Shown piece by piece: positions 25,340-64,000 of a stretch of DNA of 64,000 nt. This DNA is from a virus (taxonomy: Duplodnaviria; Heunggongvirae; Uroviricota; Caudoviricetes): IMG/VR virus record IMGVR_UViG_3300050821_010761, positions 40,808 to 104,807 of that record. One strand, 5' to 3'. Both the position numbers and the translations under genes were made by a program. The stretch's first letter is position 1. Each line of letters starts with the position of its first letter. The notes beneath the pieces were generated by a model, which saw only the letters and a program-made list of their open reading frames with translations, searched no databases and was not told the origin of the DNA.

Positions 25340-27112
25340 ATGGCTCACAGAAAAGCTAAAGATGCGCCTAAAATATTTGTATCGAATAAAGAAAAATTAA
25401 AAAATATCGTTCTAAAGACTTTAAGCGAAGCTTCTACTATAGTTTCATCTACCTTGGGACCAGGAGGGAAAAACTGTTTAATTGAATCAGACTTTCCTGG
25501 TTTAGCAAATAAAAATACGAAAGATGGCGTTACAGTATTGAAATCCTTAGGCTCTCGCGATCCGTATGAACATCTAATATTGGAACAAGTTCGTGATTCC
25601 GCAGTTAGAACAGCTACGGAAGCAGGCGACGGAACTACGACTGCAACTCTTCTTTCGTATAATATAGTATCTAATCTTTTTGCATTTTGTGAAAAAAATC
25701 CAAAATATAGTCCACAAAAAGCCACTAGGCGAATTTCTAAAGTTGTGGATTCAATTTTAATTCCCTACATTTTCAATCGTAGCATCAAAATCGACGAAAA
25801 CAACAAAGAAATGCTTCAGATGGTTGCTCAAATCAGTGCCAATGGCGATGCTGACATGGCAAACGCCGTTATCAAAGCATTTGAAGAAATTGGTTATGGA
25901 GATGCCAGCCACGTAACCATTCGAGAATTATCTGGTAAAAAAGACTACAAAGTAGAAAGAATTGATGGTTTCCCCATCCCAATCGGCTACGAAGACAGTA
26001 TTGGTAAATTGCATACTGCTTTTATTAATGACCAAGCAAACCAGCGCTGCTATCTGGAAAAACCGTTGTTTTTGTTATTTGACGGTCAGGTCAATGATCT
26101 AGTGACCATGTGGCCCATCATTTCCGAGCTTGGAACTCGTTATCAAACTGAAAAAGACGCCAAATATAAGAATCTCGTAATTGTTTCCCATGGTTTTAGC
26201 GAGAACGTGCTAACTGCATTGGCCTATAACTTCTCCGATCCAAATAGCATCAACGTCCTTCCGTTGGTGACGCCTATGGCACAATTCTTGAATTCTCAAT
26301 TGCATTTTTTACAAGATCTGTCTGCTTTCACAGGAGCTAAGATCTTTGGGATGAGCTCTCCTCTTTCCACTGCCACAATGGAAGATCTTGGCCATGGAAT
26401 GAATAGTGTTGAAGCCTATCGTTTCCGTTCCACGATTATTGGTGAACCAGAGGCTATAAACATCGAAGCACGGGCAGAAGAACTTAAAATAATGATGGAA
26501 AATGGCGAAAGTCAGGCTGAAAAAATTTGGCTTCAAGAACGATTGGGGAAAATTACTAATGGGATCGCGAAACTCACTATATTTGGTGGAAGCAACGGAG
26601 AACTCAAAGAAGCCCACGACAGGTGTGAAGACGCTGTTTGCGCGGTGCGTGCTGCTATTGGCCACGGCGCTCTACCTGGCGGCGCTCGTGTGGCTATTGA
26701 CCTAGCTCTAAAACTTAGCGAAGAGATGGAAGTCGGAGATCCTGCACGTGAAGTGCTCGTTCCAGCGCTTATGTCATTGCCTTTGCGACTGCTGGACAAT
26801 GCTGGCTATAATGCAGAAGAAACCCAGGAAGTGCTTGGTAAATTGATACAAGATCCGAGTTTGGTATATGATATCGAAAACCAGAAATTCGGAAAAGCTG
26901 AGGAATTAGGGCTATTTGACGCTACTAAAGCTGTGAGTGAATCTTTATCAAATGCGGTAAGTATCGCTACTGTGTTGGGCACAATGGGCGGAATGGTTTG
27001 TCACCCTCGCGATGATGTATTTGAGCGCTCCGAGGCTACGGCTGACAGCGAATTCATGAAAACGGTGGAAAACCCACATCAGTTCGTAAACGAAGCCAAC
27101 GAGAGGGCATAA
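25340..27112 (+). CDS. groEL: GroEL-like chaperonin
   Basis: TLGPGGKN, TKDGVTV, GDGTTTAT, PGGA, FDATKAV. Confidence 0.93.
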   Translation: MAHRKAKDAPKIFVSNKEKLKNIVLKTLSEASTIVSSTLGPGGKNCLIESDFPGLANKNTKDGVTVLKSLGSRDPYEHLILEQVRDSAVRTATEAGDGTTTATLLSYNIVSNLFAFCEKNPKYSPQKATRRISKVVDSILIPYIFNRSIKIDENNKEMLQMVAQISANGDADMANAVIKAFEEIGYGDASHVTIRELSGKKDYKVERIDGFPIPIGYEDSIGKLHTAFINDQANQRCYLEKPLFLLFDGQVNDLVTMWPIISELGTRYQTEKDAKYKNLVIVSHGFSENVLTALAYNFSDPNSINVLPLVTPMAQFLNSQLHFLQDLSAFTGAKIFGMSSPLSTATMEDLGHGMNSVEAYRFRSTIIGEPEAINIEARAEELKIMMENGESQAEKIWLQERLGKITNGIAKLTIFGGSNGELKEAHDRCEDAVCAVRAAIGHGALPGGARVAIDLALKLSEEMEVGDPAREVLVPALMSLPLRLLDNAGYNAEETQEVLGKLIQDPSLVYDIENQKFGKAEELGLFDATKAVSESLSNAVSIATVLGTMGGMVCHPRDDVFERSEATADSEFMKTVENPHQFVNEANERA

Positions 27113-40650: not shown

Positions 40651-41465
40651 TTTTTACCATAAATCTGTGCAATTCTTTCTTCCAAAAACTGGCCAGCGGT
40701 ATATCCAGGAGAAAGTTCTACATTGCCGTGCGGGTGAATAAAAAACGGCATGGAAATTCTATCAGACGCATCGTCTTTTGGATTTACGACACGATGGGTG
40801 GTTGATTTGTACAGTCCTTTGCTAGCCAATTTAAGCATATCTCCTACATTCACGATTACCGAGTTTTCTTCATGAGGTACTGCATGCCATTTACCATTAT
40901 TATCTAGCACTTCCAGTCCAGGAGCACTAGCGGCAACCAATAAGGTGATATGGTTGATATCTTCGTGTGCAGCTGCGCGAACTGAGCCTTCCTGACGATC
41001 AGAATTCTGAAGAGCTGGGTAATACAGAGTACGCAGAAGAGTTTTTGTACTTCCTTCACAGTCGTCTTCATAATTGGTTCCATTGGCATCATCGAGTACG
41101 CGTAAGATCTTCATACCCAAAGAAGAAAGTTCGAAAAACATATCACGGTTGATCAGATAAAGACCTTCTGGGATCTCTTCACCAAATTTCCAATGGAAGA
41201 ATTCCTTTAGATCTGCTGTTTTAGATCCTACGGCTGTTTCGCTACCAAAGGATTTATAGCCCATGTTGGAGTCGTTGCCATTTATAAAAAGGTTCTTGTA
41301 AATCTGGTCTCTTTTGAAAAATTTACGCCAGGCAGATTGAGCATCCTTGATAAGCCCATAGTCTATGTCATGATGCGTCAAAACAGCAAAACCAGTGTTG
41401 ATCAATGAGTTGAGAAGCGTCTTCTCGAAATCTTCTGATTGTAGATTACAAACGGCGACTTTCAT
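40647..41465 (-). CDS. 2-oxoglutarate/Fe(II) dioxygenase (IPNS/PcbC-like)
   Basis: N-terminal TGFAVLTHH; DLKEFF; HxD AAAHEDIN; VNVGDML; distal His THRVV; RISMPFF. Confidence 0.9.
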   Translation of the reverse strand: MKVAVCNLQSEDFEKTLLNSLINTGFAVLTHHDIDYGLIKDAQSAWRKFFKRDQIYKNLFINGNDSNMGYKSFGSETAVGSKTADLKEFFHWKFGEEIPEGLYLINRDMFFELSSLGMKILRVLDDANGTNYEDDCEGSTKTLLRTLYYPALQNSDRQEGSVRAAAHEDINHITLLVAASAPGLEVLDNNGKWHAVPHEENSVIVNVGDMLKLASKGLYKSTTHRVVNPKDDASDRISMPFFIHPHGNVELSPGYTAGQFLEERIAQIYGKK

Positions 41466-50457: not shown

Positions 50458-51996
50458 ATGCCAAACAAATCAAAAATAGTCGGTGAGATAGAAGTAAAAG
50501 TTAGAGAAATGTGCGAAAAGGGATACAATCCAACGCACATTGGCAAACAAGTAGGACTAGCAAAGGATACGATCAAGTCCTGGGCTAATAAAAACGGGAT
50601 CGTTCTTAGTAATAGGCTAAGCAGTAAAATAATAGACTTAGAGCCAAAAATAATCGAGCTTTTAAAAAACGGCGTTTCCAGAAAACAGATTCAGACTCAA
50701 TTACATGTTCATTATGATCAAGTTACAGAGATCTCTCTACGCCATGGCATCAAAATTAAAGATCAACTTGAAGCAGCTATAGACAAAACTATCTCTTTAG
50801 AGGAAGCCCAAAAAAGGCTCCCACCAGATGGCAGCCAAGTCATTGGCTACGATCAACAGAAAAATAAGTACATTATTAAGGCTTTAGACGGCTTTATTTA
50901 TCATAAATCATCTGCCAAAATCAAACAGGGAGATCCTCGCGGCAAGAGTGGTACCCCCTTAACCATAGAAAATGTTAAGGAACAATTGGTTAAGCTTGGC
51001 TACGAGTATGTTGAAGGTTTTACAATCAAAAGAAAACCATTAAAGGCTAAACATCTAAAATGTGGGCAAATTAGAGAGAATAGGCTTGAGAATTTTTATT
51101 TTCAAGATTGTCCAACGTGTTCTAATACTGGAACGTCTAAAGCAGAATTGGAATTACTTGAATGGGTTAGAACGTTCTATCCTAGCGCTCACAAGTACAA
51201 GTTTCAGGAACGTATAACTAAGCCAAAGGAGATTGACATTTACATACCAGAACTGAAGCTAGGCATAGAATATTGTGGACTTTACTTTCATTCTGAAAAA
51301 ATAGAGAATGCTGGAGAAAGTAAACATTACAAAAAGATGTTGGCAGCCAATGAAATTGGCATTCGTTTGATCACCATTTTTGAAAATGAGTGGTTGAACA
51401 AGCGCGATCAGATAAAGGGTTTTCTTATCTCCATCTTTAAAAGAAACGAGCGTATCGTTTATGCCAGAGACTGCAAAGTAGTCGAATTGGATTGTGACGT
51501 AGCTAACGCTTTCTTAAATGAAACTCACATACAGGGAAAAACCACTAATAATGGCATTTTCTATGGACTAGTTTATGAGGGAGAATTGCTAGCTGTGGTA
51601 AATGGCGGCATGCATCCACAAAAAGCTCAAAAAAGCGATACCCTTTATCTAAATCGATTGGCGTTCAAATTTAACACTACGGTAGTTGGAGGCTCTTCTA
51701 GATTATTCTCATATCTTGTAAAATATGCAAAAAGTAATAATTATAATAAAATCATCTCATGGTCTGACAATAGGTGGTCTGAAGGGAATGTTTATAGTAC
51801 TCTCGGATTCACATTCGATTCGCAAAAACTTAAAGGTCGCGGTTTAAGAGATGGCTCTATTTGGCCTGAATTTTATTACTGTTTTATGGGAAGCATATAT
51901 ACAAAAAAGGGTGTGAAAAAACTTCAACTCGATACAACCATGTTGCCTAAAGTCTATGATTGTGGCAAAAAACGCTGGATCTTCAATATTCCATGA
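50458..51996 (+). CDS. homing endonuclease-like protein (Vsr-like domain plus GNAT-like C-terminus, Hef-like)
   Basis: Two N-terminal HTHs; CPTC; EIDIYIPELKLGIEYCGLYFHS...LITIFENEW; C-terminal VVGGSSRLF...SWSDNRWSEGNVY...YDCG. Confidence 0.7.
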   Translation: MPNKSKIVGEIEVKVREMCEKGYNPTHIGKQVGLAKDTIKSWANKNGIVLSNRLSSKIIDLEPKIIELLKNGVSRKQIQTQLHVHYDQVTEISLRHGIKIKDQLEAAIDKTISLEEAQKRLPPDGSQVIGYDQQKNKYIIKALDGFIYHKSSAKIKQGDPRGKSGTPLTIENVKEQLVKLGYEYVEGFTIKRKPLKAKHLKCGQIRENRLENFYFQDCPTCSNTGTSKAELELLEWVRTFYPSAHKYKFQERITKPKEIDIYIPELKLGIEYCGLYFHSEKIENAGESKHYKKMLAANEIGIRLITIFENEWLNKRDQIKGFLISIFKRNERIVYARDCKVVELDCDVANAFLNETHIQGKTTNNGIFYGLVYEGELLAVVNGGMHPQKAQKSDTLYLNRLAFKFNTTVVGGSSRLFSYLVKYAKSNNYNKIISWSDNRWSEGNVYSTLGFTFDSQKLKGRGLRDGSIWPEFYYCFMGSIYTKKGVKKLQLDTTMLPKVYDCGKKRWIFNIP

Positions 51997-52837: not shown

Positions 52838-53533
52838 ATGGAAAAACTGATCATCGACCTCCTTTCTGATACTCACAATCAGCATGAAAAATTTACATGC
52901 GATGGTGGTGACATTCTTTTGCACGCTGGCGACGCTTCTTTGCGCGGATCCGAAGTTGAAATTCTTACATTTTTAGATTGGTTTGCAAAACAGGATTATT
53001 CTTATTTAATATTTGTCCCTGGAAATCACGATTGGTTTGCGGAAAGAATGCCAGTAAGAATGGCCGAAGAGTGTCAAAAACGCAACATCATTCTCCTCAA
53101 TGACTCAGGCGTTGAGATCGAAGGTATAAAGGTTTGGGGTTCGGCAATTCAGCCCTGGTTCCATAATTGGGCCTTTAATCGTTTGCGTGGCGACGACATT
53201 AAGCACCATTGGGACATGATTCCTGAAGATACCGAGATTTTGATCACCCACGGGCCGCCAGCTGGTATCCTGGATACTGTTGCCTTTGTCAATGGTAATC
53301 CTAAAGAAGGCGCTGGATGCAAGGATTTATTAGATAAGATACTGAAAACACAAGTAAAACTGCACATTTTTGGTCACATTCACGAGGCTAGAGGCATACA
53401 CTACGTTGGTCCTAGCACATTTGTAAATGCTTCATGCTTGGATAGGATGTATTATCCTGCTAGTAAAAGACCAATTCGTACTACTAGAGAACTCGTACAG
53501 GACGGCAGTATAGTCTATCTAGCCGAAGAATAA
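52838..53533 (+). CDS. metallophosphoesterase (MPPED/Rv0805-like)
   Basis: SDTH, HAGD, PGNHD, ITHGPP, FGHIHE. Confidence 0.9.
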   Translation: MEKLIIDLLSDTHNQHEKFTCDGGDILLHAGDASLRGSEVEILTFLDWFAKQDYSYLIFVPGNHDWFAERMPVRMAEECQKRNIILLNDSGVEIEGIKVWGSAIQPWFHNWAFNRLRGDDIKHHWDMIPEDTEILITHGPPAGILDTVAFVNGNPKEGAGCKDLLDKILKTQVKLHIFGHIHEARGIHYVGPSTFVNASCLDRMYYPASKRPIRTTRELVQDGSIVYLAEE

Positions 53534-55618: not shown

Positions 55619-56071
55619 ATGCGCTTAAGTGCTAATATCATTGTAAATTATGCAAACACTAACCAATTTGCTTATGCAAATCAGTGGATAATCCGTGCTG
55701 GCGACCCGAATACGCTGTACTTTCAGATAGTTGATCTAGATCAAAATATCAACAACACTAATGGATCAAATGGTCAAAATTCCAACGGTCCAACTTCCAG
55801 TTTGAGATACATGCTTGGTTGTGGCGCTGGAACCACTCCTTATTCTGTTCAAGTAAAATTTTGCTCGATCGATGATACTAAAACTCTTGTCGTACAGGCT
55901 CAGCAAGCTGATGACTGTGATAGTTCTGTATGGTCGGTTAGCCTATCTGGCAATCAAATTGTTGCCGCTGGAAACGTCTACATTGCCGTAACCGAAGGCA
56001 ATTCTACCCGAACTTTTAAGCTAATGAATGCTCTATCTGTCGAGTATAATTCGACTTGTGGGTCTTGCTAG
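55619..56071 (+). CDS. probable virion structural protein
   Basis: 150 aa beta-rich; first gene of a late operon. Confidence 0.7.
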   Translation: MRLSANIIVNYANTNQFAYANQWIIRAGDPNTLYFQIVDLDQNINNTNGSNGQNSNGPTSSLRYMLGCGAGTTPYSVQVKFCSIDDTKTLVVQAQQADDCDSSVWSVSLSGNQIVAAGNVYIAVTEGNSTRTFKLMNALSVEYNSTCGSC

Positions 56072-56904
56072 TGGATTTCAGAGAGACTGGACAAAAAACA
56101 TCGGGTACAGCAGTATATCCCGTTCACGCACAACAAACGTCTGGACTTTTAACCAGATGTGAGCCTTTACTTGATGTCAATAAATTCAAGCGCATATTCT
56201 TGACTGGCATTCCCCTAAGACTCAGAACTGGCGGAGTGATTACAGACGAAATCATCAGAGAAAGACTAAATTGGGCAATGAATGAAGCAGAGTTGATGAT
56301 TGGTTCCACTATCACACGTGAAGCCTTCATGCACAAAGTTCCATTCGATTATGCTTTATATAAATCCTACATTCACATCATGGCAGAAAAGGGTCCTATT
56401 ATTAGCCTTGAATCTTTAGCAATTGTGAGCGCCGACAATAACAATATTTTTACAATTCCCCCAACTTGGATCGAATGTACAAACTTCTCGAAGCGTTTGA
56501 TCAACGTCGTTCCACTTTTGGCTGCATATGGTGTCAACCAAGTTGGTGGTGCCGTAGGTAATGCTGGTATAGCATTTTTGACTGTCATGGATGGTCTTAA
56601 TTGGGTTCCTGCTTATTGGCAGATTAATTATACGGCTGGTCTTTCCAATACAGAAGGCCAAGTACCAATTCCAGTGAACGAGCTTATCGGTACAATTGCT
56701 GCCATTGATTTGTTGAGCATGATCGCAGCCACTTTCCTCTTCAACTCACAATCGCAAAGTCAAGACGGTATCAGTCAAAGTAGTTCTGGTCCAGGACCAA
56801 ACGTATACGCGAGACGTATAGAAGACCTAGAGAAAAAACGTGAAGTGCTCAAGAAACAGCTGAGATCGATTTTTTCGAACAGATATCTTGTCGGGAATTT
56901 CTAA
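56071..56904 (+). CDS. head-tail adaptor/neck protein
   Basis: YTAG...IPVPVNELIG, SQSQDGISQS pattern typical of head completion proteins; probable GTG start overlapping TAG. Confidence 0.65.
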   Translation: MDFRETGQKTSGTAVYPVHAQQTSGLLTRCEPLLDVNKFKRIFLTGIPLRLRTGGVITDEIIRERLNWAMNEAELMIGSTITREAFMHKVPFDYALYKSYIHIMAEKGPIISLESLAIVSADNNNIFTIPPTWIECTNFSKRLINVVPLLAAYGVNQVGGAVGNAGIAFLTVMDGLNWVPAYWQINYTAGLSNTEGQVPIPVNELIGTIAAIDLLSMIAATFLFNSQSQSQDGISQSSSGPGPNVYARRIEDLEKKREVLKKQLRSIFSNRYLVGNF

Positions 56905-57965
56905 TGGCTGCGGCGGCGAAAAGAGGCGAGGGCGTCCACAACAGCTACAAAGAAGAAGCAAAAAAAGGATGCGACGTATTATTCCGCGTAAAGATTAAAG
57001 GTAGAAAAACTCTTGTTGATGATATTCCTCTGCATATGTCACTTAAAATTTTTAGTGATCCCAAGGAATACGACTTAGATGAACTTAAGTCTTATGTAAA
57101 AGAACATGATATTTGCTCGCCAGATCCTAAAGATCTCAAATTAACTCCCATCATCTTCACCGCAGAAAAATCGAAACTCGATTACTATATGCTTAAGATA
57201 GAGGGTTTGCCTCCAAAATATAAAGCTCTATATGATCATTATAAGCATGTCGGTAATGTTTACAAAGAATTCATGACTCACGTCACCATAGATAAAGCGT
57301 TGTATGATGATTTGAAAGAAAATGGCATAAAAGCAGAAGATATAGAATTTGGTCCACTAATGGTAGAGCATGGTTCAAATAACGCCATTCATACTTTCGA
57401 CAAATCGGAAAAACTGGACAAAGGTATTAAACACGTTGCTGCTGCTCTTGGAGTAGTTGGCGCTATGGCTTCTCAGCCAGCAAAAGCTCCTGCTCCCCAA
57501 GCTGATCGTTCACCTGCTATGGTACAGCCAAATGCCTATAGTAGCAAAAGAATGCTTAATACTATATCATCAGTGGAAAGTCAACACGGCAAGTTTCAAA
57601 ATCATAAGCCCGTTGGTGGTATTCACGGTGGGGAGAGCGCTTATGGCAAATATGCTCTTATGCCTGCGACTATCAGAGACACCATCCATATGGATCCTCA
57701 ATTAAAAATCAAGCATGCAAAAGCTATGAATCTACGTGGCGATGATATGCGACGCTACATGGAAGATAATCCAGGATTAGAAGATACGATAGCGCAGAAA
57801 CATTTATCAAGATTAGAGCATCACTTTGGACAAAATCCAGAGAAAATTGGTTATGCATGGCTTAACGGTGTTCGCGGTACCTATAAGGCTGGCAAGAATA
57901 AGATGGACATTTCGAATCACTGGCATGTGAAAAAAATAAAAGATGCCTATTCAAAGGAAAAATAA
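56904..57965 (+). CDS. 2H phosphoesterase (Acb1-like) fused to a lysozyme/lytic transglycosylase-like domain
   Basis: HxS LHMSL and HxT THVTI about 80 aa apart; C-terminal ISSVESQHG...AYGKYALMP...AWLNG. Confidence 0.7.
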   Translation: MAAAAKRGEGVHNSYKEEAKKGCDVLFRVKIKGRKTLVDDIPLHMSLKIFSDPKEYDLDELKSYVKEHDICSPDPKDLKLTPIIFTAEKSKLDYYMLKIEGLPPKYKALYDHYKHVGNVYKEFMTHVTIDKALYDDLKENGIKAEDIEFGPLMVEHGSNNAIHTFDKSEKLDKGIKHVAAALGVVGAMASQPAKAPAPQADRSPAMVQPNAYSSKRMLNTISSVESQHGKFQNHKPVGGIHGGESAYGKYALMPATIRDTIHMDPQLKIKHAKAMNLRGDDMRRYMEDNPGLEDTIAQKHLSRLEHHFGQNPEKIGYAWLNGVRGTYKAGKNKMDISNHWHVKKIKDAYSKEK

Positions 57966-58475
57966 ATGCAATTAACTCCAAATGAGATATCAGACATAGA
58001 AGAAATCGGTTTATTAAACGGTACGCCAGTTAAGATGATTCGTACCCGTGGCGGATTTCATATAGCCGTTGGCAGACCAAAAGGTAAAATGCAAGAAGAG
58101 GCACTCGCTGCTGGCTCCCATCCTGCAATCGTAAAGTATAACGTGGAGCGTCAACATCCAGATTTCCAACCTTCTATGATGAAAAGTGAACTTCTTTCTA
58201 GTCCTACTAAAGTTGAAAAACATTCACATTTCCTTTCTGATGATTTAAGAAAATCTGGCCATGATTTGTATTCTGTACAATCTGGTGAAAAAATAGAATT
58301 TCAGATTACCAAACAAAACGCAAAAGTATCTTCAGTAAATAGCTCCTTAGACAAAGGCGTTTTGGTTTTCAGTGATATGAATATTGATAAGAAGTTTGCT
58401 AGAGCCCTTGCTGGAGCAACTTCCGAAAAGGCTCTTTCTTGTGGTGCGAAGAAGATAAGAGTGGAGGGCAAATAA
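57966..58475 (+). CDS. hypothetical protein
   Basis: 169 aa, two segments joined at MMKSE. Confidence 0.7.
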   Translation: MQLTPNEISDIEEIGLLNGTPVKMIRTRGGFHIAVGRPKGKMQEEALAAGSHPAIVKYNVERQHPDFQPSMMKSELLSSPTKVEKHSHFLSDDLRKSGHDLYSVQSGEKIEFQITKQNAKVSSVNSSLDKGVLVFSDMNIDKKFARALAGATSEKALSCGAKKIRVEGK

Positions 58476-58643
58476 GTGGCAAATAAAAAGATAAAATCTT
58501 GTAAAAAATCTACGAATGTTCGCGCAAAACAGGGAATGAACGCATCTGAATGGGACGCATTCATGAAAACGGTTGAATCTGTAAAGACAGAAGCAGACGA
58601 AAAACTTAAAGAAATTTCGCAAATTTGTTTAAAGAGAGCATAA
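58476..58643 (+). CDS. small hypothetical protein (55 aa, GTG start, not in ORF track)
   Basis: Fills the gap exactly and ends in a TAATG overlap. Confidence 0.5.
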   Translation: MANKKIKSCKKSTNVRAKQGMNASEWDAFMKTVESVKTEADEKLKEISQICLKRA

Positions 58644-59608
58644 TGGCAGATAACGGCGCTAATGATCCAAATAAACCGCTCGATCTAAGTGCGGATCTAC
58701 AAATCGATGCTATTCCAGAATATGCACCGTATGTACAGATGTCTTTCGATCTTGATAGATTGGAGGATTTCGTAGTTGGTCTTGGAGTCGAGTTCCTTCA
58801 CTATAAAGGACTGCCTAGCCCTATTGGTAAGAAGGATCGTGGTGACTATCGTAGAAGCGATGGCGTAGATACAATTACGTCAAACGGCATGATTTATACC
58901 ATGGCTGGTCGTTTTACTGCCACTATGACAGACAATAGCAAAACTCGTGAAAGAAACAGCGGCAGCGTATTGGATGCATCTGAGAGTAAACTGGTAATGC
59001 CTCGTTTTTATAACAACTTAGGTCTGGCCGATGGGGATAGGATATATCTTTCTCCTGGTGATAGAATCTATGTAGCCGACCCAACTGTCGACGTTTTGGT
59101 CAGCAATCCACAACAAATGGACTATACTTTTGATCAAGACAACGTTCCCATGTTTCCGATTGTAAAAATGGAAGTACCGCTCATTGACAGTCGTGGCTTC
59201 GAATACGTGGAAAATGTCGATTATGCAATCACCAAAGATGGCAATATTCGGTGGATCACTGGCGGAAGAAATCCTGGGATTGACCCAAGTACTGGAAAAG
59301 GCAGGATTTATTCAATAAGATATCTTTACAGATCTTATTGGTATATTACGATTCTCTTGAAAGAAGTAAGAGTTACAAATATTACGGAAAATGGCGTCAG
59401 AACACCAGAACGCATGCCTATGCATGCCATTGCACAAAGAGAATATATTTATCATAATCAAAATCGTGGTAATGCGTTGAATCAAAACAAGCCTAAAGAT
59501 CCGAAAAGAGTGGATTTACCACCAGTTGAGTCAGAAAATCCAGCTAAATATGGTAATGGCATTAAAGTAGAAATGGATGCTTATGGTGATGGGGACGAAG
59601 AGTCCTAG
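58643..59608 (+). CDS. neck/head-tail structural protein
   Basis: Start reassigned to MADNG; beta-rich; YSIRY, RMPMHAI; located in the neck operon. Confidence 0.65.
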   Translation: MADNGANDPNKPLDLSADLQIDAIPEYAPYVQMSFDLDRLEDFVVGLGVEFLHYKGLPSPIGKKDRGDYRRSDGVDTITSNGMIYTMAGRFTATMTDNSKTRERNSGSVLDASESKLVMPRFYNNLGLADGDRIYLSPGDRIYVADPTVDVLVSNPQQMDYTFDQDNVPMFPIVKMEVPLIDSRGFEYVENVDYAITKDGNIRWITGGRNPGIDPSTGKGRIYSIRYLYRSYWYITILLKEVRVTNITENGVRTPERMPMHAIAQREYIYHNQNRGNALNQNKPKDPKRVDLPPVESENPAKYGNGIKVEMDAYGDGDEES

Positions 59609-59615
59609 CCCACGA

Positions 59616-59623
59616 CAATCTTT
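59616..59623 (+). promoter_or_regulatory. candidate late promoter motif YAATCTTW
   Basis: CAATCTTT; AATCTT ends 28 nt before the ATG. Confidence 0.5.
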
Positions 59624-59650
59624 AATAAATATAAGGAAAATGGAGTAGTT

Positions 59651-60163
59651 ATGCCAAACATTCGAGAGCGTCAAATACCAGGTGATCAATCACGAGATAT
59701 GTCAACCATTGAGTTGTTGACATACAACGAAAAAGCGGGAGCAAGAAAAAGCGTAGAAGTTGGTCGAGCCCTAATACCGCTCGGAGATGGAGCAGGTGGA
59801 TTTACCACTAATGCTGCTACTGCACCAAGAATTCTTCCAAGTGCTGGTATTAACCTTGCAATTTACAATAATTCTGGTGCGGTTGGTTCGATCACAGTTG
59901 GCGATAACACTATGGTATCACAAGCTCCTGGTGCAGTGCAAATTTCTGGATCCAACGTTTTTGTCGGTGTTCCAGTGCAACCTAATGGTTGGCTATATCT
60001 GTCTTCTGCACAGTGGAATTGGGTCGCTGCTAGCGCTTCCACGTTGTTAGTCTTCATCATCGACGATCCTACTTACATGTTTACTTTGCCTGCTACCGTG
60101 TCTAGCAATCCGCAACAAACGGCTGCTCCTCAAGGCGCTCCAGTAAACGAGCCCAATACATAA
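59651..60163 (+). CDS. probable virion structural protein
   Basis: 170 aa beta-rich. Confidence 0.65.
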   Translation: MPNIRERQIPGDQSRDMSTIELLTYNEKAGARKSVEVGRALIPLGDGAGGFTTNAATAPRILPSAGINLAIYNNSGAVGSITVGDNTMVSQAPGAVQISGSNVFVGVPVQPNGWLYLSSAQWNWVAASASTLLVFIIDDPTYMFTLPATVSSNPQQTAAPQGAPVNEPNT

Positions 60164-60175
60164 TAGGAGCGCAAG

Positions 60176-61114
60176 GTGTCCTCTGGCGCTAATTTCTTTT
60201 TAAAGAAAACACTAGGCGAAGATTTTCTTCAGTCATTGGAGAAATTTGAATTGTGGAAGATGGGAACTAAAACCGTCGTAGATCCAGAAGAAATTAAAAT
60301 TGCGCTAAAAATCGTTCCACGCACTCTAATGAGCATGCTTATTCATAATTTGACTAGCATGGAAATCGGCGATACCAAAGAAATAGAGATTCCAGTCGAG
60401 AGTAGTAGTCCTCATCAAGCCATGGTCAGAGTCAATAAGCACGAGAGGGACGTTTACTCTGGTGAGATCGAGCAAGGCAACAAAAAGATAGCGGAATTCA
60501 AATATCGTTCTATCCCTGGTGTTGGTTTGGTTATCATGAGCGCTCTAGAGCTTTATGATGTTGAAAGACTCAATGATCATTCTAAAGACCACTCTATGGA
60601 AATGGAACATAAAGTCCAAAGAATGATTGATGATCGCCTAGCATTACACGATTTAATCGGTAAGGTTGTTGACAAGAAGTTATCCGAACGTGAAGCCATA
60701 CAAAAGGTGATTCTTCATAAACTTACAGAAGAACTTCATAGAGAGAAAGAAGGCGTTGGTCCTAGTGAGCAAGTAAGACAATTACACGAAACGCAGGATG
60801 AACTTAGAAAAGAAAATAAAAAATTAAAAAAGAAACTTGCACTTAATGAGTTCTTAGAAGAGAGAAAGAAAAAGTTACACAAAAAAGAACACCCAATATC
60901 TCTTTCCAAGGGTGAGCACGTTTCTTGTCCAGATTGCGGTAAAAACATATTCGACGGTACGGTATTTGCTGGCTGTATTTGTTATGGCGACGATATGGAT
61001 AAAAAATTATACATTACCAAATCAGAAGGTGGAGTAAAAGTAAGATTCGGTAAAGGATGGGATCCAGAAAATATTGAAATGCTATTGGATGTCCTGAGAG
61101 GCAAACGTGGATAA
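60176..61114 (+). CDS. hypothetical protein with coiled coil and C-terminal zinc ribbon
   Basis: GTG start; LSKGE then CPDCG...CIC. Confidence 0.7.
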   Translation: MSSGANFFLKKTLGEDFLQSLEKFELWKMGTKTVVDPEEIKIALKIVPRTLMSMLIHNLTSMEIGDTKEIEIPVESSSPHQAMVRVNKHERDVYSGEIEQGNKKIAEFKYRSIPGVGLVIMSALELYDVERLNDHSKDHSMEMEHKVQRMIDDRLALHDLIGKVVDKKLSEREAIQKVILHKLTEELHREKEGVGPSEQVRQLHETQDELRKENKKLKKKLALNEFLEERKKKLHKKEHPISLSKGEHVSCPDCGKNIFDGTVFAGCICYGDDMDKKLYITKSEGGVKVRFGKGWDPENIEMLLDVLRGKRG

Positions 61115-62975
61115 TTTCAGATGGATTGTCAACTATGATGGTGATGATGCTGGACGCATGATTGGCCGAGCAATTTTGTCTAACCAGTTGGGTGCATTGC
61201 ATGAGGCATCGGATAGGATAAAACTTGGTAACGAGATAGTAGAAAAATGGTCAAATGATCATGGAGGTGTCACTATATCTAATGGCGGTGACCAGGGTGC
61301 ATTTGAAGTTCCCCATGAAGCACTTGAGAGTCTCGATCAACTAATGAGAGATTATCATTTTGCTACTCAGCTTACTATGTCGATGGGAGTAGGTAAAACT
61401 CTATCTGAATCTGGAAAAGCATTGTTAGCTGCAAAATTTAGAGGTAAGAATCAAATTGTATATTATGATTTTTCCGTAGAAAATGACTTAGAAAAAGTAA
61501 AAAATAATTTAACGCATGGCACTGCTTCCGAAGAAGAAAAAAAACAGGGCGAAGCTTACTTACAACCAACTGAACAGGAAATTCCAATGGACGAGAAAGA
61601 TAAATATAAAAACGCGTACGCGCAAACAGATCCAGAACCATTGTGGAATTCCGAAGAACCTGACGATGCTGGTGGTCCACAACCAATGCATGATTCTGAA
61701 CAGCTTCCAACAGACGGTACATTAACGCAGGAACACGATTGTCCTTACTGTAATGAACTACAAGCCCAAAATATAACCGATGAAGATTGTCCATACTGCG
61801 CTGACACTGGACATGATCCCAATGCACCTGATCATTTGGATGATTGCCAATATTGTGCCGTAATGAGCCACGATCCAGATATGGAAGGTCATACTGATGA
61901 TTGCGCTTATTGTCAAGAAATGGCAATGCACGATCCTATGATGGATGGTCATGCCGATGATTGTCCGTATTGCGCTAGATCGCATGATCCAAACATGGAA
62001 GGTCACCCAGAAGATTGTCAATATTGTGCTAGAGCAGATCAATGGAATGGCGGGAATGGTCAAGAGATCGAACCTAGCAGCCCTTCTTCTCAAGTACTGC
62101 CTACCACTCAAGATAGCCAGGATTATGATGGTCAGGACTTACCTCGTCCCGATCTAGATAAACCGTCGGCTATTTCTGCGGTTCCATCAGGACTTGGATT
62201 TAATACGGATTCACAAACAAATGAAAATATCAAGTTAGAAGATACGCAAGGAAAGCAAGATCCAAATATGGATGCTCAAATGGCTCAAGCTAGCAATCCA
62301 GAGGGTCAAGAGACTGTCAACGATATCATTGGTGAAATTGATGCAGTTCCTACCGATGAAGTTCCAGGAAGACCGAAAATTAATCAGACCGACGATGCTA
62401 ACATGGCCATTGGCACTAATATGGAAGGCAACGTAAGCAGAGAAGATAGTTACAGTCAGGATGTTCCTACTGATTTGGGACTTGGAGAAGAACCAGACAA
62501 TGATTCCCCAGACATTAGTTCAGTCCTTAAAGAAGGTTTAGACAATCACGCCGATAGTATTAAACGTGAGAAAGTCATGGAAATGGTCGGCGAAGCTTTG
62601 GAAGGTTTTAAGGCTAGTAAAATGATTATTGAGAGAGCTAAAACTGAAGCTCCCCAATTCTATCAGTCGTCCATTGCGATGCTTAAAGCTATGATCGAGA
62701 TGTGTAAGATGCTTGGTTTAGACCAACAACAAGCGATGACTCCATCTGGCGTTTTAAATCCACAAGCGTCAGCCGATGAACCAATAGTTGATTCGAAAGA
62801 TCAAGTAGAAGATCCTGAAGCTTCGTATGAAGCACACATGAGCCAGCCTGGTAATACGCCAATGGGTGGACCAGAAAGTGCTGAACAAGACGGGCATCCA
62901 AACTACTCGAATCTTTTTCCTCCTCACCCAGATGGGAAGGCGGGAAACTCCGACCCAAAGCTTCAGGGGTTATAG
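61107..62975 (+). CDS. mCpol (minimal CRISPR polymerase) domain protein with His/Cys repeats and acidic linker
   Basis: YDGDDAGR...GGVTISNGGDQ...TMSMGVG..LSE...ALLAAKFRGKNQI in the first ~120 aa; six DCxYC repeats. Confidence 0.8.
   Translation: MDNFRWIVNYDGDDAGRMIGRAILSNQLGALHEASDRIKLGNEIVEKWSNDHGGVTISNGGDQGAFEVPHEALESLDQLMRDYHFATQLTMSMGVGKTLSESGKALLAAKFRGKNQIVYYDFSVENDLEKVKNNLTHGTASEEEKKQGEAYLQPTEQEIPMDEKDKYKNAYAQTDPEPLWNSEEPDDAGGPQPMHDSEQLPTDGTLTQEHDCPYCNELQAQNITDEDCPYCADTGHDPNAPDHLDDCQYCAVMSHDPDMEGHTDDCAYCQEMAMHDPMMDGHADDCPYCARSHDPNMEGHPEDCQYCARADQWNGGNGQEIEPSSPSSQVLPTTQDSQDYDGQDLPRPDLDKPSAISAVPSGLGFNTDSQTNENIKLEDTQGKQDPNMDAQMAQASNPEGQETVNDIIGEIDAVPTDEVPGRPKINQTDDANMAIGTNMEGNVSREDSYSQDVPTDLGLGEEPDNDSPDISSVLKEGLDNHADSIKREKVMEMVGEALEGFKASKMIIERAKTEAPQFYQSSIAMLKAMIEMCKMLGLDQQQAMTPSGVLNPQASADEPIVDSKDQVEDPEASYEAHMSQPGNTPMGGPESAEQDGHPNYSNLFPPHPDGKAGNSDPKLQGL
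61734..62030 (+). repeat. tandem peptide repeats HDPxMxGHxDDCxYC
   Basis: Six DCxYC units, four preceded by HDP...H. Confidence 0.9.
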
Positions 62976-62998
62976 GGCAACCCGTAGGAAAACTGCCC
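62942..62998 (+). promoter_or_regulatory. candidate programmed -1 ribosomal frameshift signal
   Basis: In-frame heptamers G GGA AAC (62942) and C CCA AAG (62954); H-type pseudoknot GGGTT/AACCC plus GGGC/GCCC 6 nt downstream. Confidence 0.65.
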
Positions 62999-63205
62999 AC
63001 CAGTCAAACTACTCCGCACGTACCTAGGACACCTTTCCTAGAAGGGGCAGTAAATGATAAAGGACAAAAAAAGGTCATCGATCCTATTACTGGCAAAACC
63101 AGATGGATTACAATGCGTGAAGGAAAAGTTAAGAGTCCAACTGGAGTACCAGTAAAACCAGAGAGAATAGAAGAAAATGGCCCTAAAGTTCCAGCTAAAC
63201 GTTGA
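62960..63205 (+). CDS. -1 frame C-terminal extension (81 aa) of the mCpol protein
   Basis: Frame open 62885-63205 with no ATG/GTG/TTG until 63113: ASGVIGQPVGKLP...KVIDPITGKTRWITMREGKV...PAKR*. Confidence 0.55.
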   Translation, partial: ASGVIGQPVGKLPTSQTTPHVPRTPFLEGAVNDKGQKKVIDPITGKTRWITMREGKVKSPTGVPVKPERIEENGPKVPAKR

Positions 63206-63929
63206 AGAGATCGCTAGTACATTCGGCGAATTTGCAAAGGAAGTAGCGGATGACATGCGAAAAGCAGTCAGGGATCTGGCTACTCTTACACGTGCGCAGA
63301 TTCACCTGGAAGTGCAGTCCGAATTGCATTCGACTAGAAAAATTTATCTGGATAATCTTTCTGATGCCACGGAATCTTCCCCTGGAGTTTGGACGATTAC
63401 TTTGGACGAACCTGCTTTTTTCATTGAAGAAGGAATTGAGCCAAATCATGACATGAAGCCCGATTTACTTAAAGGAAAGCCTTATCGAGTAATTCCTTTC
63501 AAATATAATACTGCTCCTACTGAAACGGTACCCTCAACTCAATTGCTAATTACGGAAATCAAGAAAAAGCTAAGAAATGAAAAGATACCGTACAAGAAGA
63601 TTGAATACAATAAAGACGGTAGTCCAAAAGTAGGGAAGCTTCATGATTTAAGGTGGGGCACTCAGATACCTGGTGGAAACCAAATACCTGGAAGAGGCAA
63701 TACGCCGCAGCTCAAAGGCTTGTCGATTTACCAACAGATCACGAAAAGCGGTAACGTAAGACGTGATATATTAACATTTCGCACAGTGAGCGCTGGACCA
63801 AAGAGCCAAGGGAAATGGTTGCACCCTGGGCTGAAAGCCAAGCATTACATGGACAAAGCATTCGATGAAGCAATGACCAAATGGGAGCAAGAAATTTTGC
63901 CTGAAATCATGCAGAAGTGGGGTAGATAA
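63177..63929 (+). CDS. tail completion/neck protein (HK97 gp10-like N-terminus)
   Basis: Helical N-terminus, WTITLDE..FFIEEG, FRTVS...KWLHPG. Confidence 0.6.
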   Translation: MALKFQLNVEEIASTFGEFAKEVADDMRKAVRDLATLTRAQIHLEVQSELHSTRKIYLDNLSDATESSPGVWTITLDEPAFFIEEGIEPNHDMKPDLLKGKPYRVIPFKYNTAPTETVPSTQLLITEIKKKLRNEKIPYKKIEYNKDGSPKVGKLHDLRWGTQIPGGNQIPGRGNTPQLKGLSIYQQITKSGNVRRDILTFRTVSAGPKSQGKWLHPGLKAKHYMDKAFDEAMTKWEQEILPEIMQKWGR

Positions 63930-63931
63930 AT

Positions 63932-64000
63932 ATGGGTGTATTCCAAGGCGACGTTGTAATTTCTGCAATGTTAAATCGTGGTTTAGAGGATATCAGAAAA
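63932..64000 (+). CDS. partial CDS (runs off window end)
   Basis: MGVFQGDVVISAMLNRGLEDIRK... Confidence 0.55.
   Translation, partial: MGVFQGDVVISAMLNRGLEDIRK

Follow-up and report, generated by a model that had tools for sequence, protein, structure and literature searches.

A predicted mCpol cyclase domain on a conserved neck-module protein of Mx1-like phages

The 64,000 nucleotides analysed here, referred to throughout as the window, are positions 40,808 to 104,807 of IMG/VR record IMGVR_UViG_3300050821_010761, a virus record of 168,807 bp that CheckV rates as 100% complete. At positions 61107 to 62975 on the + strand, the window carries a gene for a 622-residue protein. As judged from sequence and structure prediction, residues 1-151 of this protein form a genuine mCpol palm domain in which the catalytic residues are preserved. 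By gene order, this mCpol-carrier gene is a conserved, syntenic member of the neck module of myoviruses resembling Myxococcus phage Mx1. The interpretation that we prefer, from sequence and models and with about even confidence, is that the gene encodes a particle-associated carrier with an active cyclase that may tamper with host nucleotide signalling.

The mCpol family was characterised in 2025-2026, when it was identified in the bacterial Panoptes guard as a synthase that constitutively makes a 'decoy', and it was described as relatively rare and prokaryotic (PMC12657218, PMC12657230, PMC13577387). What is already known is the family itself, with Panoptes as its only studied setting, and what is new is the phage-borne version on a neck-block carrier. 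No mention of phage mCpol copies, of anti-Panoptes activity, or of a phage-encoded cyclase in connection with Panoptes was found in the searchable literature. An initial annotation of the window had recognised the domain; the -1 frameshift that would extend the protein to position 63205, the Mx1-like neck synteny, the non-enzymatic constant core and the very large family described below go beyond it.

The mCpol domain and its active site

The initial annotation proposed an intact mCpol domain at the N-terminus of an acidic 622-residue protein, and the Pfam match, the predicted structure and the conservation among relatives all bear this out. The motifs that it cited lie at residues 10-17 (YDGDDAGR), 60-62 (GGD), 92-96 (SMGVG) and 105-115 (ALLAAKFRGKN). 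Two of the checks that it named, a search with Pfam family PF18182 and a structural match, gave 49-54 bits against a cut-off of 26.4 and a superposition on the Panoptes protein OptS with a template modelling (TM) score of 0.88. The gene and the parts of its product are as follows.

61107 to 62975 (+): 0-frame open reading frame of the 622-residue short isoform, with a GTG start; homologues open with the same M-D-N-F residues.
61128 to 61466 (+): mCpol palm domain, residues 8-120, recognised by Pfam, AlphaFold2, Foldseek and conservation in 246 relatives.
61137 to 61139 and 61143 to 61145 (+): catalytic residues D11 and D13.
61284 to 61292 (+): GGD hairpin, residues 60-62.
Also within the mCpol domain (+): S35, the base-contact position, and the K110/R112/G113/K114 motif.
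61470 to 61559 (+): residues 122-151, a pair of additional conserved helices that follow the palm core, with a G-T-A-S..EE.K.GEAYL motif, lying in the predicted dimer interface.
61734 to 62036 (+): region of Cys/His repeats, residues 210-310; of its six CxxC motifs, four lie within H-D-P-x4-5-H-x3-C-x-Y-C units.
62037 to 62501 (+): acidic linker predicted to be disordered, residues 311-465, with the conserved short motifs P-T-T..S.N-Y.G-Q-D-L and N-M-E-G-N-V-S-R-P.
62502 to 62726 (+): conserved C-terminal three-helix module, residues 466-540, with helices at 471-535 modelled at a predicted local distance difference test (pLDDT) of 80-92.

The PF18182 match covers residues 8-120 and model positions 2-114 of 114, scoring 49.1 bits with the whole protein and 53.7 bits with the domain alone (expectation value E 1e-13 to 3e-14). 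A phmmer search against all chains in the PDB returned significant matches only to solved mCpol/OptS structures (9nwn, E 1.8e-7; 9mnr, E 5.9e-7). AlphaFold2 modelled residues 1-165 from an alignment of 87 relatives with a mean pLDDT of 94, and when this model was compared with the PDB by Foldseek, ranks 1-6 were all taken by OptS/mCpol entries (9mnr, 9pd0 and 9nwn; TM score by target 0.87-0.89, root-mean-square deviation 1.4-1.7 A, 30-31% identity). The GGDEF cyclases and the Cas10 palm domains come next, at the superfamily level; for GGDEF, the TM score is about 0.55 and the identity 13-15%. Assignment to either of these families finds no support in the profiles: there is no GGDEF Pfam match at E up to 1 and the hairpin reads GGDQG, while the Cas10/Cmr2 palm 2 profile PF22335 reaches 13.8-17.9 bits against a cut-off of 27 and no other Cas10 domains are present.

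The active site can be read against that of KpOptS, in which D6 and D57 hold the metals and are essential by mutation, and in which the adenine is contacted from the other protomer, where Ser30 and Asn34 point towards it (PMC12657218). In the HMMER alignment, D6, D57, Ser30 and Asn34 correspond to D11, D62, S35 and K39 of the phage protein. Among 246 relatives aligned to the family hidden Markov model (HMM), D11 is kept in 243, D13 in 245, G60 in 239, G61 in 245 and D62 in every one; K110 is kept in 245 and G113 in 243, and position 35 is Ser in 217. The mCpol domains of these relatives are otherwise only 30-50% identical, so the near invariance of the catalytic residues points to selection on the chemistry and not only on the fold. 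With OptS of Panoptes, the phage domain shares the minimal palm fold, the catalytic aspartate pair and the base-contact Ser, and by prediction it may also have the same cross-protomer dimer geometry. It differs in its hairpin, which reads GGD(Q/E) in the phage family, as in Cas10 and GGDEF, and AAD in KpOptS; in the two extra helices that join the predicted dimer interface; and in its context, since OptS is a stand-alone protein of ~120 residues whereas the phage mCpol forms the N-terminus of a protein of 622 or 699 residues. Taking sequence and model together, we consider it very likely that this is a real and catalytically competent mCpol.

Prediction of two copies of the domain together gave a score of 0.53, where the best of 3 controls gave 0.00. 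Of 30 proteins known from solved structures to be pairs of one chain, 20 came up to this score, as did 1 of 23 whose structures are single chains. Agreement between runs is at least 85% of the contacts, and the partner has a pLDDT of at least 82. In the two-copy model, the GGD hairpin (residues 57-63) lies against residues 34-35 and 38 of the other copy, and the extra helices (residues 142-151) join the interface. The arrangement is like that of the solved KpOptS complex, so memory on the part of the predictor is possible, and the predicted dimer would show likeness to OptS rather than proof.

These results also bear on the chemistry. It has to be asked whether the domain might instead act as a nucleotidyltransferase on a macromolecule, by nucleotidylation of DNA ends or proteins, by making short primers or by Thg1-like addition, while the genome is being packaged or ejected. 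Template-dependent polymerases and 3'-5' polymerases are both known in the Cas10/GGDEF/Thg1 palm superfamily (PMC12657218), a neck-side position would put the enzyme near the genome end, and the basic C-terminal extension described below (isoelectric point, pI, 10.3) could bind DNA. We nevertheless regard this alternative as very unlikely: by far the closest relatives in sequence and structure are the cyclic-dinucleotide-forming OptS proteins, the predicted symmetric dimer fits the geometry of a cyclase, and Pfam recognises no nucleic-acid-binding domain in the mCpol-carrier protein.

The carrier and its C-terminal extension

The 622-residue protein is strongly acidic, with a pI of 4.2 and 121 Asp and Glu residues against 41 Lys and Arg residues. 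Its GTG start at 61107 is preceded, at a distance of 5 nt, by a GAGAGG Shine-Dalgarno sequence, and it shares 8 nt with the end of the upstream gene, stop codon included; the overlap, GTGGATAA, suggests translational coupling of the two genes. The whole-protein model is confident in two places only, residues 1-151 and the three-helix module at 471-535. The Cys/His repeat region, which judging from its motifs probably binds zinc, is modelled at a confidence of 60-70 only. Searched at E up to 10, Pfam has no match to any part outside the mCpol domain, whether Cys/His repeats, linker, helical module, tail or frameshift extension; no MuF-type packaging domain was recognised in the protein, and PHROGs gave no family for it. 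The mCpol domain and the three-helix module occur together in 201 of the 246 relatives.

Just before its stop codon, the gene carries the signature of a programmed -1 frameshift.

62954 to 62960 (+): slippery heptamer C CCA AAG, the proposed shift site, in X XXY YYZ register (frame position 2 for its first base) and 13 nt ahead of the stop in the 0 frame.
62954 to 63205 (+): -1-frame continuation, 83 codons from the slip site, of which 81 give new residues (pI 10.3).
62967 to 62983 (+): weak hairpin of 5 bp, 6 nt downstream of the heptamer, that might stimulate the shift.

The heptamer encodes the nearly invariant P617-K618. The -1 frame has no ATG, GTG or TTG before its conserved part and overlaps the next gene by 29 nt, and a protein read through it would have 699 residues. 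The extension is itself conserved as protein, with 42-81% identity in relatives by tblastn, and it is closely similar to the C-terminal tails that some relatives, and the homologue in Mx1, carry in frame. The frame of the extension was surveyed in 43 distinct loci in which both the helical module and the extension are detectable: 24 have it in the -1 frame, 16 as an in-frame fusion and 3 in the +1 frame. In all 24 of the -1-frame loci, a canonical in-register heptamer is found no more than 60 nt from the stop (CCCAAAA in 11, CCCAAAG in 10, AAAAAAA in 2 and AAAAAAG in 1), and many relatives have a hairpin of 9-17 bp 5-8 nt after it. On this comparative evidence, we think it likely that a 699-residue frameshift isoform is made, and the gene would add a new conserved case of -1 frameshifting.

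Three distinct relatives (L023, L029 and L031; also L073) have the extension in the +1 (or -2) frame. In these, CCCCACAGC..TAAGCC is conserved around the stop and there is no canonical -1 heptamer; they may use a different recoding route or a -2 slip on CCC.

Programmed -1 frameshift products are well known from phage assembly genes, as in the G/GT tail chaperone of lambda and the capsid proteins 10A/10B of T7. The mCpol-carrier gene resembles these in having its heptamer just before the stop and a C-terminal extension that has no start of its own, and the arrangement is likewise conserved across distant relatives, with in-frame fusions in some. It differs in that the mCpol-carrier protein is neither a tail chaperone nor a capsid protein, and carries an enzyme. 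In the mechanism that we envisage, a fraction of ribosomes would slip at the heptamer and add the basic 81-residue extension, giving fixed proportions of the 622- and 699-residue forms. Fixed proportions of two forms are typical of particle or assembly proteins.

Relatives of the carrier

The family to which the domain belongs is very large. A phmmer search with the domain against 1.84 billion cluster representatives returned 748 clusters (at 50% identity) with E up to 1e-3, of which 487 had E up to 1e-10; the clusters listed are mostly proteins of 400-1100 residues with the domain at the N-terminus. A search for proteins of similar length found 160 relatives, nearly all with PF18182 and many on contigs of 150-177 kb. 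Among 185,579 species-representative bacterial and archaeal genomes, the mCpol-carrier family was found at 5 loci, all on contigs of metagenome-assembled genomes. Neither megablast of positions 58000-64000 nor tblastn of the whole protein found anything among 50,697 phage records, and the N-terminal domain alone as query reached Mx1. Word-indexed searches with parts of the protein gave little: residues 1-135 found one short protein, which is not good evidence for a free-standing mCpol, and residues 425-622 found five proteins of 155-321 residues, with longest contigs of less than 1 to 8 kb, which are not good examples of mCpol-less carriers.

Examples of carriers without the enzyme were obtained from gene order. 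Among 51 loci anchored on the tail terminator gene, each with at least 4.5 kb of sequence upstream of it, the helical module is present in 50 and mCpol in 46, located 2.1-4.6 kb upstream of the terminator. In the other 5 loci, the carrier starts with a Cys-rich region or another N-terminus and there is no mCpol within 9 kb upstream. Three of the mCpol-less loci (L028, L054 and L057) have terminators 54-56% identical to that of the window, against 33-45% for many mCpol-bearing relatives, which points to secondary loss of mCpol. In L108/L109 (6649-8016), an mCpol-less carrier has a different basic, His/Cys/Lys-rich N-terminal region of ~150 residues with no recognised domain, and this may be an alternative cargo or a DNA-binding head.

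Other enzymes are also found on the same protein. Among 50 long relatives, the extra domains are DUF5661 in 9, GNAT in 6, ParB_N in 2, and ART-PolyVal and NUDIX in 1 each, and mCpol is by far the commonest enzyme domain on the carrier. By sequence comparison, the carrier (CxxC repeats, linker, helical module and extension) is thus the constant part, and the enzymes are cargo that has been added, lost or inactivated. This combination of a carrier with interchangeable enzymes follows the logic of polyvalent proteins, which are delivered by phages and conjugative elements and of which rare examples bear GGDEF domains (Iyer et al. 2017, PMC5512222). It was proposed there that delivered cyclases might interfere with host nucleotide signalling, and mCpol was not mentioned (PMC5512222). 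The likeness lies in the relatives that string GNAT, NUDIX, ParB_N and ART-PolyVal domains on one polypeptide and in the classical polyvalent protein encoded in the Mx1 operon; the protein of the window differs in that a single enzyme domain is recognised in it, where polyvalent proteins have several. For the present family, it is gene position alone that would suggest delivery.

The only homologue found in a cultured phage is that of Myxococcus phage Mx1 (169.6 kb), a protein of 468 residues (WNM70340.1; OR576727.2). Its gene lies four genes upstream of the annotated tail sheath gene, and the protein keeps the fold and the helical module and has the extension fused in frame. It has, however, lost the catalytic residues (D11 to S, GGDE to LGAV, K110 to Q), scores 21 bits with PF18182, which is below the cut-off, and is without the CxxC repeats. 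The tolerated losses and this pseudo-enzyme argue that catalysis is accessory rather than essential.

The Mx1 protein also raises the question of whether the palm domain, within a neck or assembly protein that releases no signal, could do no more than dimerise or bind nucleotides. A homologue that keeps the fold, the helical module and the extension without the catalytic residues speaks for such a structural role, and the predicted dimerisation of the domain and the place of the gene among neck genes are compatible with it. Two findings make it improbable: hardly any of the 246 relatives departs from the metal-binding aspartates, the GGD hairpin or the K..RGK motif, and the existence of carriers without mCpol implies that the domain is not needed structurally.

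Upstream in the operon of the inactivated Mx1 homologue (L009, 2448-8754) are a gene for a 1479-residue polyvalent protein with GNAT, ART-PolyVal and NUDIX domains and a gene for a 619-residue PI3/PI4-kinase/HipA-like protein. From its gene content, this region looks like a cluster of likely delivered effectors within the structural region.

Genomic setting and possible roles

The mCpol-carrier gene lies in a + strand block that starts with the gene at 55619 and continues into the tail genes; the genes that lie between 55619 and the tail tube recur, in the same order, in 24-39 of 40 related loci. Its immediate neighbours are the following.

60176 to 61114 (+): upstream gene for a 312-residue protein of unknown function, syntenic in 35 of 40 loci, whose stop overlaps the start of the mCpol-carrier gene.
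63177 to 63929 (+): downstream gene for a 250-residue neck protein of the HK97-gp10-like or tail-completion type.

The downstream gene is followed, just beyond the window, by a tail terminator-like gene and then by genes for the sheath and a Phi812-type tube. This position suggests that the mCpol-carrier protein is a late protein, as the initial annotation supposed, and that it may be a component of the virion, and from sequence we regard association with the particle or its assembly as rather more probable than not.

Membership in a Panoptes system is not indicated by this setting. The neighbours are neck and tail genes with no effector match, and the record is that of a virus rather than a bacterial or archaeal genome, whereas Panoptes (type I, OptS-OptE; type II, mCpol with CARF-TM) has an adjacent effector with 2TM plus a nucleotide-binding beta-barrel, CARF or SAVED domain and lies in a bacterial defence island, often next to an antiphage system that signals by cyclic oligonucleotides (CBASS). 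The initial annotation saw no effector in the window, and at the level of Pfam this extends to the whole genome. Across all 168,807 bp, there is no Cap15/S-2TM-beta (Cap15_CD_rec) or SAVED match, although the controls matched nowhere either and these absences are weak, and no CARF-type match (Cas_APE2256, Csx1-type) by Pfam. Defence benefiting the host was rejected as the leading interpretation because no effector was found. A related proposal is that the phage carries a Panoptes of its own, which would protect the infected cell or lysogen from rival phages. Apart from the present family, mCpol is known only from defence operons (PMC12657218, PMC12657230, PMC13577387), which is the point in its favour. 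With no 2TM-beta, CARF or SAVED partner found beside the gene or genome-wide, with neck and tail genes as neighbours, and with integrated prophage copies that look rare (5 loci in 185,579 prokaryotic genomes), we judge it extremely unlikely.

Our preferred interpretation, that of a particle-associated carrier whose cyclase acts on host nucleotide signalling, can be put as a series of steps. The mCpol domains would pair head to head as in OptS, so that one copy holds the triphosphate and Ser35 of the other reads the base, with a preference for adenine provided that the Ser rule of OptS, Cas10 and GGDEF applies. From nucleoside triphosphates, probably ATP, the paired domains would constitutively make a cyclic di- or oligonucleotide. 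Attachment of the protein to the forming particle would be through the helical module and the extension, leading either to delivery with the DNA or to action late in the infected cell. The product would then interfere with the cyclic-nucleotide immune signalling of the host; it could supply the inhibitory ligand of a Panoptes-type effector, or occupy the sensors of CBASS or of type III systems. In its most specific form, this proposal has an active mCpol on a neck or head carrier that is delivered with the DNA and forges an 'all is well' ligand from the first seconds of infection, so that Panoptes stays silent or CBASS and type III systems are jammed. We consider that specific form unlikely, and a counter-defence purpose in general possible but doubtful.

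Several observations weigh against the preferred interpretation. The gene is near-universal and syntenic in its phage lineage, whereas counter-defence genes are usually patchy and early. Genome-wide, Pfam found no Tad2 sponge, AcrIII-1 ring nuclease or 2H phosphoesterase family of the kind that would make a countermeasure to Panoptes necessary. In the active site, the residue equivalent to Asn34 of KpOptS is K39, and the fourth residue of the hairpin is Q (GGDQ, as in 35 of the 246 relatives) where the family consensus is GGDE; KpOptS has AAD at its hairpin, and the fourth position is evidently not critical in mCpol. The RNA of the frameshift region of the window does not fold better than shuffled sequences (z = +1.05), and no virion proteomics for Mx1 or its relatives was found in the searchable literature.

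Some of the same observations would fit signalling within the phage programme itself, in which the product would be read by a phage receptor or a housekeeping receptor of the host and would time packaging, head-tail joining or lysis, with no part in immunity. The gene is core-like and syntenic in a late structural block, frameshifting would give two fixed forms as for assembly proteins, and the genome yielded no anti-signalling gene. Against it, mCpol is lost in 5 of 51 loci and inactivated in Mx1 while the carrier is kept, which an essential signal for timing should hardly tolerate, and no candidate nucleotide receptor (CARF, SAVED or Cap15-type) was found in the genome. On balance, internal signalling seems rather improbable to us.

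If the domain is active, phages would synthesise immune-type nucleotides besides destroying or sequestering them. The preferred interpretation raises the question of whether a virus can silence a guard system by supplying its inhibitory ligand and, if true, would be the first known phage answer to inhibitory-signal immunity. At a single gene position, nature provides versions in which the enzyme is active, dead, lost or joined by others, a series well suited to experiments, with Mx1 as a cultivable entry point.

As for the other genes of the block, the long charged middle part of the 312-residue protein encoded upstream of the mCpol-carrier gene resembles a coiled coil, and its C-terminus bears a C-P-D-C ... 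C-I-C cluster; neither profile nor atlas searches found anything similar to this protein. The gene at 56904-57965 (+) encodes a 353-residue neck-block protein and is syntenic in 24 of 40 loci. This protein has H-x-S/T motifs at residues 44 and 126, with histidines moderately conserved in 22 homologues; it was considered as an Acb1-like 2H phosphoesterase and rejected, there being no Pfam 2H match or other profile match.

Elsewhere, the window encodes a DNA polymerase, an SbcC-like protein, a GroEL-like chaperonin, the large terminase, the portal and the major head protein. The genes below belong to this wider setting.

25340 to 27112 (+): GroEL-like chaperonin gene (PHROG 5725, E 1e-82), just upstream of the terminase-portal block.
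50458 to 51996 (+): gene for a 512-residue HNH/homing-endonuclease-like protein (PHROG E 9e-66), inserted directly after the major head protein gene.
52838 to 53533 (+): calcineurin-like metallophosphoesterase gene, which recurs near head and mCpol genes in relatives (L005, 2798-3508; L008, 70-894).

In relative L005, a GIY-YIG endonuclease is inserted beside the mCpol gene instead, and the structural block seems to be populated by mobile endonucleases. In L008, the metallophosphoesterase gene is located ~1 kb from a gene encoding an mCpol-NUDIX fusion.

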